DNA of 64,000 nucleotides from a virus: the IMG/VR virus record IMGVR_UViG_3300045988_172839, positions 1-64,000 of that record; one strand, 5' to 3'. The notes beneath the pieces were generated by a model. It was not told where the DNA came from. It made no database searches and saw only the letters and a list, made by a program, of their open reading frames with translations. The stretch's first letter is position 1. Each line of letters opens with the position of its first letter. Of this stretch, positions 1 through 64,000 are shown one piece after another. A program made the translations under genes and the position numbers.

Positions 1-60
1 GTTCGAACCAGTGACATCATGATTAACAGTCATGCGCTCTACCAACTGAGCTATGGTGGA
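1..60 (-). tRNA. tRNA-Asn (anticodon GTT), 3' part cut off by window start
   Basis: Reverse complement reads TCCACCA-TA-GCTCAGTTGGTAGAGC-G-CATGA-CTGTTAA-TCATG-ATGTC-ACTGGTTCGAAC. This gives an acceptor 5' half, D arm, anticodon stem-loop with GTT and the start of the T arm. Confidence 0.8.
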
Positions 61-366
61 TTGAACCCCCTAATGTACCCGTTTGGTAAGAAGCTGACAA
101 CTACTAATTAAACGAAAGTAACATAAGGAAGAGTTTGGTTTAAATAGAAGCGAAACTAGATTTCTCATTCGATACCCATTGACAAAAGAGGTATCAAATT
201 AAAGCAAGTTCAAAATAAACCAAAGTTTGTAAACGAACGCGTTTCGTTTGTTTATTGTTCTTTTTGTCTTTTGTGGATTTCTGTTCCTAAAACTAGAATT
301 AAACATTTCGAAAACAAGAACAGGGTCCGCTAACTAAAATCTGCGCGCTAAGAGAATAGTTAGTTA

Positions 367-439
367 TGACTCGGACTGGGTTTGAACCAGTCACCCATCA
401 ATTAAAAGTCGATTGCTCTTCCAACTGAGCTACCGAGTC
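367..439 (-). tRNA. tRNA-Lys (anticodon TTT)
   Basis: Reverse complement reads GACTCGG-TA-GCTCAGTTGGAAGAGC-A-ATCGA-CTTTTAA-TTGAT-GGGTG-ACTGGTTCAAACCCAGT-CCGAGTC-A. It folds into a full 73-nt cloverleaf by hand. Confidence 0.85.
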
Positions 440-466
440 TAAAGGAGAAACCATTTAAAATGGTTA

Positions 467-540
467 TGGTGCGAGACAGAATCGAACTGCCGACGCATGG
501 AGCTTCAATCCAACGCTCTACCAAACTGAGCTATCGCACC
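467..540 (-). tRNA. tRNA-Phe (anticodon GAA)
   Basis: Reverse complement reads GGTGCGA-TA-GCTCAGTTTGGTAGAGC, anticodon loop TTGAAGC, T arm GGCAGTTCGATTCTGTC and acceptor TCGCACC-A. Confidence 0.85.
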
Positions 541-1069
541 GAAAAGGGATACCCTCAACACCTTTGGTATCTTGTATAGGAGAACCATGAACCCATACAT
601 TTTTAGACCTCAACCTAGTACATTCGGATTGAGATTGTCTGTGTTTTTCGTTAGTTAGAAAATGTACTTCTTAACTAACTGGCTTTAAAAACGACTTCTT
701 CGACAAATTTGATACCCATAAGTGGAGATGTCTCCATCGTTTTGCAACTGAGTTTTATTCTTGGTTTACTGAACGGGTTTGTTCTTACTCTGAACCGTCT
801 GCACATGTTCTGCTTGAAAGCAGTAAACCTCACCAACCTTATCTTAACTAGCTTTAGCCTGCTAATCGAACCGTTGGCGTCACCTCGTATCGCTGAGGGG
901 CGTTAGTAGAGGACTAACCTTCTACTTAGGTGTCCTTACTTCTAAGAGTAAGAATCTCAAGCATTCACACAACGGTTACACATTATGCTTGTGCTATAAC
1001 GATTTAACAACCTTTCACAGTTGCTAAACCCAAGTTGCAATGAATTACTTCAAAACAATCTTTCCGGCA

Positions 1070-1142
1070 TGACTCGAACTGGGCTTGAACCAATGACCTT
1101 CTGCTTGTAAGACAGATGCTCTCCCAACTGAGCTATCGAGTC
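1070..1142 (-). tRNA. tRNA-Val (anticodon TAC)
   Basis: Reverse complement reads GACTCGA-TA-GCTCAGTTGGGAGAGC-A-TCTGT-CTTACAA-GCAGA-AGGTC-ATTGGTTCAAGCCCAGT-TCGAGTC-A. Confidence 0.85.
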
Positions 1143-1441
1143 TAAATATAGCATTATGTAACTATCCAAAACGTGTCCATCACTTTTTTTGTTAGTTTCG
1201 AACCTAACTTAAAAAGCTCCTCCACACATCATCCGTTTTAGCTACCACCCCTTCACAATAATTCAAAAGTCAGCTACACTTCATCACCATTATTGTCGCC
1301 CTAGTTCAGTGATTCGAGCGGGGAAATAGTTACAAGTTCATCATTTTTGATTTCTTAAACGCTTTGTCATTGTTTAAGAAACTACACTTCCTTTATGTGT
1401 CTCAGAAAGACAATGATGTGGGTTTATACCCAAATCTATAA

Positions 1442-61509: not shown

Positions 61510-61596
61510 AAAGACACCTCCTTTCTTATTACAACTAAAGTGTAACACAAAAAGGTATATGTATCAAGTTTAGTATTAAAATTTTTAAAAATTTTG

Positions 61597-62826
61597 TTAG
61601 AAATTTAAGTTATTTGTAATCTGTTGGAAACACAACTCAGTTAAGCGTTTCATAATCGATTCAAAAGCGCTACGTTGTTGCAATTTACGAGACTCTTTAT
61701 CTGTTGCGTAGCTTTCAATCAAAGCGAGGATACCGAGTTGAGATTGTTCTCCATTATCATTCACAATCGTCTCTTCTGAGTTCAACCCTAAATCTCTCAT
61801 CAGTCTTCGACTTGAAACACTGTAAACCGTTGTAATCCCTCTACCTGAAACCGCTGCAGTGCGCTTATACGTTCTATCCAAAATCACATACAAGTCAATT
61901 CCGGGACTCATTAAAGCACTCATAACACTTGTAGTTGGAGTTGTTGTGTACATCTCAGACAACAAGTACAACTTAGAAGCTTCACGTGTGATATTACTAG
62001 AGTCTACCTTGCGTAAAGACTTGTAACGAGCATCTACATAATCAGTAGCTTGGTCTATTACAATCAATTTTGCTTGTATCTCTGGCACTTTCGCTAACCA
62101 ATCAATATAAGCCGACAAAAATGAGGTCAGATACCGAGTGGGAGCTTGCTCCCTAATCAACAAGACCTTTGAGTTACCTGTGTAACTATACTGAGTGTAA
62201 GTGTTAATAGAACCAAATCCACCAAATGAAGAAGTTTTTAAGTTATTGATTTCATCTTCTTGTTTTGACAACTGCTCCTCTGCAATTTTCAAGCGACTTG
62301 AAGCAGTTAAGAGAAAAGCTTGTAATTCCTCATTCAACTCTGCTGAGAACACAACTTCCTGTAAGACATCACTCAACTGCTCATAAGCCATTGAAATTTT
62401 ACGCTCTAACAGTTTTGGTTCATCTGCTAATTCCCCTCGAATGTATTCATCAACCAAAGTGAAACTATCCGCTAACTGAGTTAATTCATCTGTTTGATTG
62501 TCCATCTCTCGACTTGACATAAACTCTAGCAAATCAGAAAAACCCTCAGTATTATCTAACAAGGAACTATCTTGAATAACATAAGCTCCTACTGTTTTCA
62601 TCGTCTCTAAAACGATACGAGAGGGAGTTTCAGTTATATAAGCAATCTTAGTTAAAGAGTTGTCTCTCATAGCATTTAAAATAAACACTAAGAAGTCAAA
62701 GTCTTTATCTGTGTACGACTCAATAATGAGAGTCGTTTTCATAGTAATCCGTTCTATCTGTTTAATACTAGAAACAGTGGTACAACTAGGATACCGAACG
62801 TTTTTTGTTGTTAAAATGTAGTCCAT
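61597..62826 (-). CDS. Hypothetical protein
   Basis: 409-aa ORF with a central coiled-coil-like segment. Confidence 0.55.
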   Translation of the reverse strand: MDYILTTKNVRYPSCTTVSSIKQIERITMKTTLIIESYTDKDFDFLVFILNAMRDNSLTKIAYITETPSRIVLETMKTVGAYVIQDSSLLDNTEGFSDLLEFMSSREMDNQTDELTQLADSFTLVDEYIRGELADEPKLLERKISMAYEQLSDVLQEVVFSAELNEELQAFLLTASSRLKIAEEQLSKQEDEINNLKTSSFGGFGSINTYTQYSYTGNSKVLLIREQAPTRYLTSFLSAYIDWLAKVPEIQAKLIVIDQATDYVDARYKSLRKVDSSNITREASKLYLLSEMYTTTPTTSVMSALMSPGIDLYVILDRTYKRTAAVSGRGITTVYSVSSRRLMRDLGLNSEETIVNDNGEQSQLGILALIESYATDKESRKLQQRSAFESIMKRLTELCFQQITNNLNF

Positions 62827-62841
62827 GTTTTATCAAACCAC

Positions 62842-63492
62842 CTACCTAGACTGAGCTAATTGTAAGACTGCATAGATTTCATTATCTAACTTAGAAACCG
62901 CTGCTAACTCTTGTTTTGTGAGTTTCTTCTTGCCGAAAACCTTCCCTCCATAACTAAAAGTTTTAATTACAGAACCTTTACTAGCTATTGGCTTTGGAGG
63001 TGTAAATGCAGGCTCTTGCGAGGATACCGCAGACTGCTCCGTTCCATATTTAACAACCGCTTTCATATTCTTCTTACTAGAATGTTCTAAACGAATAGTG
63101 TCTAAAGAACTCTTACACAAGTTGTTTGCAATCAAATCCACATTTACTTGCTCATTTGTTTGTAGCAAATAGTCTGTATAAATCGGCTCACTAAAGAAAC
63201 TGTAATAAGAATCCACTACTTCCAAGTCTGCAGATTCAAAATATCGACCAAAGAGTACAACTTCAGTAGTTCGAGCGTGATCCATTAAAAAAGTACGCAA
63301 GTTGCTAAACTCTTGCGGTGAATTTACATTTACACAGTTAATAATCAAACGCTCACAACGAAGAGCCTTACGACTCGCCATGTTCAGAAAAGCACCGATA
63401 GAATTGAAACCTTCCACCTCTTTCAAACCATGCGACTCCCTCACTGCATTTACTACTTGCTCACTCTTCTCTCCAAAAATTAAACCAATCAT
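62842..63492 (-). CDS. Hypothetical protein
   Basis: 216-aa ORF. The N-terminal ~120 aa have an alternating beta/alpha pattern (MIGLIFGEK...RLIINCV...VVLFG) that could be receiver-like. This is unverified. Confidence 0.5.
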   Translation of the reverse strand: MIGLIFGEKSEQVVNAVRESHGLKEVEGFNSIGAFLNMASRKALRCERLIINCVNVNSPQEFSNLRTFLMDHARTTEVVLFGRYFESADLEVVDSYYSFFSEPIYTDYLLQTNEQVNVDLIANNLCKSSLDTIRLEHSSKKNMKAVVKYGTEQSAVSSQEPAFTPPKPIASKGSVIKTFSYGGKVFGKKKLTKQELAAVSKLDNEIYAVLQLAQSR

Positions 63493-63518
63493 CTAAAGAC
63501 ACCCTCTACTTTCTTATC

Positions 63519-63977
63519 CTAAAATAAGTCCAATTCATCTGAACTTTCAATTTTATTCACTTGACGACTACTAGAGCCACCAAACAAATCTTCCGCACTT
63601 ACATCAGCACCTTTATTCACAGATTTTTGAGAGTTATCCACAGGTGTTGACAACTCTTCCGCAGAAACATCTGTTTCAAGCACACTTGTTAAGCCACTTG
63701 CTTGTTTTGTTGAGCTACTTTCTGTTCCAAACAAGTCCAACACTTCTGCTTGGGTTTGTTTTGCTTTCTCTTTACCTTTTTTCTTGGTTTTCTTAGGTTG
63801 AGTTTTCGCTTGTTCTGCAGATACCCTTGCTTGTGCTTGTTGTTTTCTGTACTGCTCTTCTTGTTTCAAGCGAGCTTCTGATAGAGAAGTGTTCACTTGT
63901 TTTCTACGGTTTTGGGCGTCTCCTAACCACAATAGACGAAGACTGGAACGCTCAGACTTCTGAACTGCTTGGTTCAT
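63519..63977 (-). CDS. Hypothetical lysine/serine-rich protein
   Basis: 152-aa ORF. Its start overlaps the upstream stop codon (ATGA). Confidence 0.5.
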   Translation of the reverse strand: MNQAVQKSERSSLRLLWLGDAQNRRKQVNTSLSEARLKQEEQYRKQQAQARVSAEQAKTQPKKTKKKGKEKAKQTQAEVLDLFGTESSSTKQASGLTSVLETDVSAEELSTPVDNSQKSVNKGADVSAEDLFGGSSSRQVNKIESSDELDLF

Positions 63978-64000
63978 GGCTTCGGTAACTGAAAACTCAG
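63974..64000 (-). CDS. 3' end of an upstream CDS that continues beyond the window
   Basis: Open frame ...LSFQLPKP* ending in a TGA that overlaps the ATG of 63519..63977. Confidence 0.3.
   Translation of the reverse strand: MSFQLPKP

Follow-up and report, generated by a model that had tools for sequence, protein, structure and literature searches.

A circular element of about 238 kb from the human mouth has a backbone collinear with that of the conjugative Bacillus plasmid pXO16

The stretch of DNA analyzed here (64,000 nt, hereafter the window; IMG/VR record IMGVR_UViG_3300045988_172839) corresponds to bases 1-64000 of the JGI contig Ga0557493_021747 (238,470 bp, from a human oral metagenome), and represents approximately 27% of a larger element whose gene content and relationship to pXO16, a plasmid of Bacillus thuringiensis, are the subject of this report. 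Minus-strand open reading frames (ORFs) cover 93.6% of the window, every ORF of realistic size lies on that strand, and the plus-strand ORFs are shadows within minus-strand ones. The skew between guanine and cytosine (GC skew) is below zero in 31 of 32 2-kb bins, so the claim of an original prediction from the sequence alone, that all supported genes lie on the minus strand, was borne out. The same prediction had assumed ordinary sigma-A promoters; this is unproven, since sigma-70-like sites are no commoner than in shuffled sequence (46 observed, 45.2 expected). GC content is 0.377 overall (range, 0.33-0.42) and 0.35-0.39 in related loci. All features described below are on the minus strand, and coordinates refer to the window unless another locus is named.

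The right-hand part of the window is occupied by a putative transfer locus with two ATPases. The first (57264-59444) is a 726-amino-acid (aa) VirB4-like protein, which gave only sub-threshold P-loop matches in Pfam (AAA_10 below threshold) and no sequence match in PDB, and therefore required a structure model. The AlphaFold model, built on 13 homologues (predicted local distance difference test score of 59.7 overall and ~80 over residues 330-620), was searched with Foldseek and best matched TrwK/VirB4 of R388 (7o43_B, E 1.3e-7); T. pseudethanolicus VirB4 (4ag5) matched with a target-normalised template modelling score of 0.58-0.59, with HerA next. A tblastn search of this protein against plasmids identified pXO16 (pBTHD789-1, NC_018516.1), a 349.6-kb plasmid of B. 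thuringiensis sv. israelensis, with 32.5% identity over 94% of its length (3e-102 against plasmids, 1e-106 in a local comparison). The VirB4-like label that had been proposed from the letters alone thus lacks Pfam support and is sustained by the modelled fold and the pXO16 homologue. The second ATPase (54580-57069; 829 aa; Pfam FtsK_SpoIIIE, 1e-12; PDB FtsK motor, 8e-9) is of the FtsK/SpoIIIE type, has a disordered, membrane-associated N-terminal half, matches the pXO16 FtsK/SpoIIIE protein (tblastn, 1e-48), and is a candidate coupling protein in the role of TcpA/VirD4. Both ATPases are adjacent and ordered as in the tip transfer locus of pXO16, with genes for a SpoVG-like protein (53212-53487; Pfam and precomputed gene tables) and an SNF2 helicase (51405-53132; Pfam) downstream; according to the gene tables, these two neighbours are kept in every relative examined. 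SpoVG is followed immediately by a strong terminator-like hairpin (53186-53213), part of which coincides with a promoter-like site (TG-extended -10) upstream of SNF2; signals that punctuate transcription this clearly are few in the window.

Upstream of the ATPases, three conserved transfer-locus proteins (61597-64000), one of 409 aa, one of 216 aa and one of 445 aa that starts at 64856, beyond the window end, and has only its C-terminal 152 aa inside, match pXO16 at 210.9-214.4 kb by tblastn, and their order is identical in related loci L050, L052 and L070. The 409-aa and 216-aa proteins were considered as relaxases and set aside, as their sequences, read by eye, resemble receiver/ParA-like folds and not HUH or Rep_trans. 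An IS607-type insertion sequence (59480-61548; Rfam and precomputed Pfam) sits between the VirB4-like and 409-aa genes and consists of an omega-RNA (59480-59626; Rfam RF02998, 148 bits), TnpB (59643-60869; precomputed Pfam) and a MerR-type helix-turn-helix serine recombinase (60862-61548; precomputed Pfam). Gene contexts place no such insertion at this site in pXO16 or distant relatives. The recombinase belongs to the insertion sequence and is not an integrase of the element; the earlier statement that no integrase is present holds in that respect, and this insertion had been overlooked. More TnpB genes occur elsewhere in related contigs (L044, L096, L129 and L224). The core order of the locus (giant protein, hydrolase, four to five small to mid-sized proteins, VirB4-like protein, small protein, FtsK, a further protein, SpoVG, SNF2) is maintained in relatives whose VirB4-like proteins are 41-52% identical, and in one relative found solely by profile search. 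The hydrolase of this order, a 570-aa CHAP/GDSL protein just outside the window, gave no sequence match to pXO16, and lysozyme-like proteins take its position in relatives. In pXO16 a cell-wall hydrolase of the transfer locus, TipB, is required for transfer.

Downstream of the transfer locus the window encodes a set of replication proteins. These include a DnaB-like replicative helicase (44718-46310; Pfam DnaB_C, 2e-8; pXO16 DnaB-like protein, 1e-52), a 208-aa CHC2 zinc-finger primase-like protein (41763-42389; Pfam Zn_ribbon_DnaG, 1e-7) and a 310-aa RuvC-like resolvase (40831-41763; PHROG 159, 7e-10), the latter two also with pXO16 homologues. A 547-aa ParB_N-HNH nuclease-like protein (36687-38330; Pfam HNH, 1e-8; ParB_N, 8e-4) matches a pXO16 HNH endonuclease (tblastn, 1e-65), and next to its gene, within 36687-39713, a 458-aa ligase-like protein matches an annotated NAD-dependent ligase of pXO16 (2e-10). 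The family-A DNA polymerase (18353-22291; 1312 aa by longest ORF, 1307 aa as gene call; Pfam DNA_pol_A, 8e-48) matches the pXO16 DNA polymerase (tblastn, 8e-79) and has a weak, below-threshold Pfam match for a 3'-5' exonuclease domain. Between these groups (25265-28211) lie a conserved 340-aa protein and a 612-aa putative N6-adenine methyltransferase (26373-28211) with DASCGTGNLL and NPPY motifs, which have pXO16 homologues in the same order (tblastn, 8e-23 and 4e-51). Neither the methyltransferase nor the ligase-like proteins of the window gave a Pfam match, and these two labels of the original prediction find their support in pXO16 homologues at matching places. Pfam, PHROGs or fold confirmed the remainder of its gene list (PolA, DnaB-like, primase zinc finger, RuvC-like, SNF2, ParB-like, HU, hydrolase and FtsK-like). 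A metallophosphatase is also among the Pfam-supported genes.

Closer to the left end is a group of signalling genes, comprising a Ser/Thr protein kinase with a C-terminal membrane/extracellular part (8381-10045; Pfam Pkinase, 4e-45), an HD phosphohydrolase (13291-14286; Pfam), a PP2C phosphatase (14338-15108; Pfam) and an FHA/DUF6382 protein (15113-16294; Pfam). The kinase is 37% identical to that of pXO16 (tblastn, 2e-113), and the HD/PP2C/FHA trio (13291-16294) has its counterpart, in matching order, at 74.8-79 kb of pXO16 (tblastn and pXO16 annotation). The order common to 8381-16294 of the window and 63-79 kb of pXO16 suggests a phospho-signalling module belonging to the backbone. Beyond the kinase, a secreted and membrane-anchored surface protein of 1185 aa with Ig-like domains (4139-7696; Pfam Big_13) is a homologue of the Ig-like repeat protein of pXO16 (tblastn, 55-56 kb, 6e-34). 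Its Pro-rich and acidic tandem repeats lie at the two gene ends, with 27/33/66-nt units at 4235-4454 and Pro-rich units of 12-132 nt at 6029-7136, and in place of an LPXTG motif it has a long acidic tail behind its membrane anchor.

The complete pXO16 sequence was compared locally with every ORF at a cut-off of E<1e-5. Twenty-three window ORFs match pXO16, all on a single strand and with their order preserved (Spearman rho 0.96, p 2e-13); of the 53 ORFs of 150 aa or more in the window and its two short flanks, 22 have such a match, and they account for half of the residues encoded. The collinear series begins with the Ig-like surface protein, kinase, HD, PP2C, FHA, polymerase, methyltransferase-like and ParB/HNH proteins and continues with the ligase-like, RuvC-like, CHC2, DnaB-like, SNF2, SpoVG, FtsK-like, VirB4-like, 409-aa and 445-aa proteins. 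The 64 kb of the window corresponds to 160 kb of pXO16, and the latter is swollen by runs of small paralogous genes. Together with ~124 kb beyond the window, ~188 of 245 kb (77%) of the element was sampled, leaving gaps of ~18 kb and ~39 kb; positions outside the window were mapped on IMGVR_UViG_3300007654_000008 (244,669 bp). In this wider sample, collinearity with pXO16 persists in loci 60-120 kb away, bar one small rearrangement. The hydrolase there is 50% identical to its pXO16 counterpart, a clamp-loader-like AAA ATPase matches at 4e-75, and an exonuclease and a DHH protein also match. Adjacent ORFs of 1053-1059 aa and 849 aa (L054 4802-10546) together correspond to a single 1834-aa protein of the pXO16 transfer locus (218-224 kb), the 849-aa ORF matching at 2e-151, and the UvrD helicase, DnaJ and Toprim proteins have matching places in pXO16 by annotation and position. 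In total, ~40 homologous proteins are arranged in the same order round the circle. The view that this mix of genes fits nothing characterised is thus not upheld, since the backbone is collinear with conjugative pXO16 and has the same orientation and gene set.

pXO16 has 434 coding sequences with few homologues, all in the same orientation, and contains tip (transfer) and agr (aggregation) loci; the tip locus spans 25 kb and encodes two ATPases and a hydrolase, and single-stranded DNA is transferred in a manner distantly resembling pCW3 (PMC9673590, PMC6199540). Neither a known relaxase nor an origin of transfer (oriT) has been recognized on it (PMC9673590). Both replicons are giant and circular, with a single gene orientation, uniformly negative GC skew (35 of 35 10-kb bins in pXO16), mostly genes without recognised function, and neither virion genes nor a recognised relaxase. 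In each of ten further loci of the oral element, the VirB4 strand carries 85% or more of the bases in long ORFs, and no switch of skew or orientation occurs in the sampled part. They differ in that amino-acid identity is just 22-50%, the oral element is shorter by ~110 kb and much poorer in small paralogous genes, the pXO16 gyrase genes beside the SNF2 helicase are missing from the corresponding part of the window, and the single 1834-aa protein is two ORFs in oral elements. Conjugation has been demonstrated for pXO16 and is proposed for the oral element. A similar parts list is found in the Tcp system of Clostridium perfringens pCW3, with the FtsK-like coupling protein TcpA, the VirB4-like ATPase TcpF, the hydrolase TcpG and the VirB6-like TcpH, a parallel also drawn in the pXO16 literature (PMC6199540). 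The likeness to the oral element is one of functional parts (FtsK-type coupling ATPase, VirB4-fold ATPase, peptidoglycan hydrolases and large membrane proteins); no TcpM-like relaxase turned up on the oral element, and its locus forms part of a 238-kb replicon that encodes a replisome. More distant tblastn matches of the VirB4-like protein lie on a 215-kb B. velezensis plasmid and a 143-kb B. subtilis plasmid. The former (NZ_CP076292.1; 215,687 bp) carries a distant one-directional version of the locus with a giant protein, an AAA ATPase and VirB4-like and FtsK-like proteins, which hints at a wider superfamily in Bacillota.

The element is a circular extrachromosomal replicon of ~238 kb, as seen in assemblies that are rotated, have overlapping ends or are of dimer size. 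A 238,733-bp human oral contig in ENA contains the same genes, offset by ~10.3 kb, and is continuous through the left edge of the window, which is therefore an assembly break in a molecule whose circularity follows from this rotation at near-equal size. The ends of a 240,176-bp IMG/VR contig (UViG_3300007997_000004) overlap by 780 nt, and a 477,247-bp saliva contig of Yahara et al. (BNJT01000212.1) equals 2 x 238.6 kb and is probably a dimer from long-read assembly of the circular element. IMG/VR contains 22 related loci on contigs of 207-284 kb from oral samples of the Human Microbiome Project (HMP), all filed as viral genomes. Relatives are present in all four saliva samples of Yahara et al. 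(BNJS, BNJT, BNJU and BNJV; contigs of 241, 268, 277, 311 and 477 kb) and in HMP, Chinese, Japanese and other cohorts. The main protein cluster has 630 member sequences, a profile of the VirB4-like ATPase recovered 261 clusters at 50% identity among 1.84 billion representatives, and the family is, by these sequences, broad but distinct. The expectation of a large extrachromosomal element with its own replication genes, transfer ATPases and no virion genes was borne out by a circular ~238-kb molecule found in many oral metagenomes. A "plasmid-like element" described from saliva, contig_811 (223,995 bp), has zero phage hallmark genes, remote homologues of type IV secretion system proteins and an assignment to Streptococcus sp. 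(Yahara et al. 2021, Nat Commun 12:27; PMC7782811). It is probably related to the element; the contigs of that study matched here differ from it in size.

The left end of the window carries a tRNA array identified with ARAGORN and Rfam. It consists of a tRNA-Asn truncated by the window start (1-60), tRNA-Lys-UUU (367-439), tRNA-Phe-GAA (467-540), tRNA-Val-UAC (1070-1142), a second tRNA-Lys-UUU (1442-1514), tRNA-Arg-UCU (1692-1766) and tRNA-Leu-UAA (1778-1861). These six complete tRNAs and one cut copy are compatible with the seven to eight originally counted. The array runs past the window (L026 11734-19237), from window position 1861 to ~5.6 kb before the window start, and contains 14 tRNAs in total (Leu, Arg, Lys x2, Val, Phe, Asn, Pro, Ser x2, Glu, Asp, Tyr and Trp; ARAGORN, Rfam), as well as, left of the window, a full-length transfer-messenger RNA (tmRNA; Rfam 108 bits, E 4e-42) with the tag peptide ANNNAPVEMVA (ANNNAPVRVAA in relatives). 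This combination is unusual for a plasmid-like element, and no tRNAs or tmRNA occur in the 89 kb of pXO16 scanned, including the matching region. To the right of the array in the window are genes for a 91-aa HU-type DNA-binding protein (2468-2743; precomputed Pfam Bac_DNA_binding), a type I signal peptidase S26 (2929-3594; Pfam PF10502, E 9e-30) and, past the kinase, a secreted lysozyme-like cell-wall hydrolase with a C-terminal membrane segment (10065-11300; Pfam Phage_lysozyme2, 3e-24).

Small genes and the genes for Toprim and SPFH proteins follow beyond the tRNA array, to the left of the window. To the right, the 445-aa protein is followed by small proteins, the CHAP/GDSL hydrolase, the 849-aa and 1053-1059-aa proteins, a hydrolase and the clamp-loader-like AAA ATPase. 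Upstream of the transfer region is a 2083-aa antigen I/II LPXTG adhesin (L223 1-2127; Adhesin_P1_N, AgI_II_C2 and Antigen_C domains by Pfam), which sits where the aggregation region of pXO16 has giant surface proteins. A 5'-3' exonuclease, RNase H, Fic, several DNA methyltransferases, a DHH/RecJ-like protein, UvrD helicase, DnaJ and more TnpB copies are found further round the element. The methyltransferases include scattered orphans, two N6_N4 and at least two C5 (L134 17743-19336; L045 6604-7380; L224 16662-17909; L129 12063-12770), a spread consistent with evasion of host restriction. One variant (IMGVR_UViG_3300007995_000002; L044 1670-8496) carries a Wadjet-like cluster, with an SbcC/JetC-like Walker B protein and a JetD_C/DUF2399 protein, that is missing from the same site in L129. 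Wadjet is an anti-plasmid defence, here sitting on a plasmid-like element. Relative to pXO16, then, the oral element has gained a tRNA/tmRNA array and a streptococcal-type adhesin, and it also has IS607-type insertions.

Several of these genes, namely the host-like HU, the signal peptidase, the tRNAs, the tmRNA and the antigen I/II adhesin, could speak for an integrated element (an integrative and conjugative element or genomic island) or of a mis-assembled piece of chromosome. We regard such an origin as very improbable, as independent 232-251-kb assemblies are circularly permuted or have overlapping ends, ~77% of the element contains neither ribosomal or core chromosomal genes nor an element integrase, no relative occurs in GTDB species genomes, and the relative pXO16 is a plasmid.

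Another alternative is a jumbo phage or phage-plasmid, with virion genes in the unsampled part or too divergent to recognize, and with the FtsK/VirB4-like ATPases serving packaging or another phage function. The oral element resembles jumbo phages with tRNA arrays in its size, autonomous phage-like replisome, tRNA and tmRNA genes, unidirectional blocks and wealth of orphan genes; phages commonly have all genes in one orientation, and VirSorter labelled the probably related 224-kb saliva contig as phage (PMC7782811). It departs from them in carrying a VirB4/FtsK transfer locus and in having a conjugative plasmid as its nearest characterised relative. Pfam and PHROGs scans of 40 proteins and precomputed Pfam assignments for every called window gene returned no capsid, portal, terminase or tail family, in agreement with the initial reading of the window; with baseplate families added, the same holds for the ~188 of 245 kb sampled (Pfam, PHROGs and precomputed tables) and for complete pXO16, among whose 454 annotated features no virion family was found. 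The sole "terminase" match was a 33-residue P-loop (PHROGs). Megablast of 24 kb against GenBank phages and PLSDB plasmids gave no nucleotide match, and tblastn of the polymerase against phages gave only distant (<30% identity) partial matches to the polymerase domain. Packaging by the FtsK/VirB4-like pair, as in membrane phages, was considered and set aside, as the fold match is to VirB4 and the locus has its homologue in the transfer region defined by experiment in pXO16. The transfer ATPase is predicted to fold like VirB4, the saliva contig_811 has zero hallmark genes (PMC7782811), and pXO16, whose "phage-like nature" its authors suspected, moves by conjugation and never plaques (PMC6199540). 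A phage identity is, in our judgment, unlikely.

We consider it probable that the window is about a quarter of a ~238-kb circular replicon of the pXO16 family in a Gram-positive oral bacterium, and that this replicon is a self-replicating and self-transferring megaplasmid, not a phage; by its sequence, the element is a new and common human-oral member of that family. Several observations weigh against this. Two gaps, together ~57 kb or about 23% of the element, lie outside the sampled part, and many proteins belong to no detectable family, so that divergent structural genes are possible. An array of tRNAs and a tmRNA would be a more typical finding in a large phage than in a plasmid. General scans of the element returned none of the relaxase families (MOB, Rep_trans, Replic_Relax), and neither an oriT nor a canonical plasmid Rep was found on it. 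No relative of the VirB4-like protein or of TnpB occurs in 185,579 GTDB species genomes, and host and intracellular state are for this reason matters of inference. The filing of related contigs as viral genomes in IMG/VR and the remark on the phage-like nature of pXO16 (PMC6199540) point the same way.

The original prediction had brought up the Inocles, giant elements of oral streptococci, and the element could in principle be an Inocle or an unnamed fifth Inocle taxon. Both are giant, circular, oral and Streptococcus-associated, fall in a similar size class, consist mostly of genes without recognised function, and share insertion sequences, an S26 signal peptidase, VirB4/VirD4-type ATPases, RecJ-like DHH and exonuclease genes, sortase-dependent cell-wall-anchored proteins and tRNAs (PMC12340149); PRJEB6997, the cohort behind the ENA source run, was also mined by the Inocle authors. 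Compared by published description, the two differ. Inocles have a GC content of 32% (alpha, beta and gamma) or 24% (delta), two GC-skew replichores with ORF orientation switching at origin and terminus, and DNA polymerase III alpha (PMC12340149), whereas the oral element has a GC content of 0.35-0.39, no skew or ORF-orientation switch in the sampled 188 kb, and a family-A polymerase. Inocle membership is defined by DIAMOND matches (E<1e-10) to InoC, a marker of ~454 aa with an N-terminal PF13814 replication-relaxation domain (PMC12340149). A search by Pfam domain detected no PF13814 protein in the precomputed gene tables or among 80 Pfam-scanned proteins over ~77% of the element. We therefore see little chance that the element is an Inocle, a suggestion that GC content, orientation switch and PF13814 leave unsupported. 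The Inocle paper (Kiguchi et al. 2025, Nat Commun 16:7397) mentions neither pXO16 nor Bacillus (PMC12340149).

By analogy with pXO16, for which transfer was shown by experiment, a mode of life can be proposed for such a megaplasmid. For replication it would rely on a family-A polymerase and a DnaB-like helicase of its own, together with CHC2/Toprim primase parts, a clamp-loader-like ATPase, the ligase-like protein and the resolvase. It would move from cell to cell, as pXO16 does, by conjugation, using a type IV secretion system of a divergent Tcp/tip type, whose parts would be the VirB4-like ATPase, the FtsK-like coupling ATPase, the large membrane proteins (1053-1059 and 849 aa) and the peptidoglycan hydrolases (the lysozyme-like one of the window and the CHAP/GDSL one just outside it). 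Mating-pair contact may be aided by the 1185-aa Ig-like protein and the 2083-aa antigen I/II LPXTG adhesin, and the element-encoded signal peptidase would process them. The kinase/PP2C/FHA/HD module probably tunes host physiology, and the 14 tRNAs and tmRNA probably support translation of element genes.

The host is probably a Gram-positive oral bacterium, most likely a Streptococcus, judging by the antigen I/II LPXTG adhesin on the element, a GC content (0.38) that fits this genus, and the assignment of the probably related element of Yahara et al. to Streptococcus sp. Antigen I/II adhesins are characteristic of oral streptococci. The HU protein is 86% identical to a presumed streptococcal HlpA sequence. 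The earlier proposal of a Streptococcus-like host is thus plausible by the adhesin and HU, and it stands as inference and not as demonstration. In habitat and probable host the element accordingly differs from pXO16, which resides in Bacillus.

pXO16 has been regarded as unique, with a natural range limited to B. thuringiensis sv. israelensis (PMC9673590, PMC6199540), and it is very fast in transfer; with no known relaxase, it mobilises plasmids termed "non-mobilisable" as well as pieces of chromosome as long as 791 kb. A broader and more tentative proposal, to which we give distinctly less than even chances, is that pXO16 is the sole cultured member of a class of giant conjugative replicons of Bacillota, old and widespread, whose members replicate themselves and have their genes in one direction, and one lineage of which is among the commonest large elements of the mouth. 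Such replicons would be phage-like in their replisome, tRNA/tmRNA genes and single orientation, with a divergent type IV secretion system replacing the virion; their relaxase may be of a novel kind, and the Inocles may be a further branch. If close architectural relatives of pXO16 are common in oral streptococci, there may be a large and overlooked route of gene exchange in the human mouth. Under the same condition, the contigs that viral databases currently list as "jumbo phages" are probably plasmids, and comparison of the oral and Bacillus replicons would shrink the conserved core to a few dozen genes, a number small enough to bring the missing relaxase, oriT and origin of replication of this plasmid type within reach.

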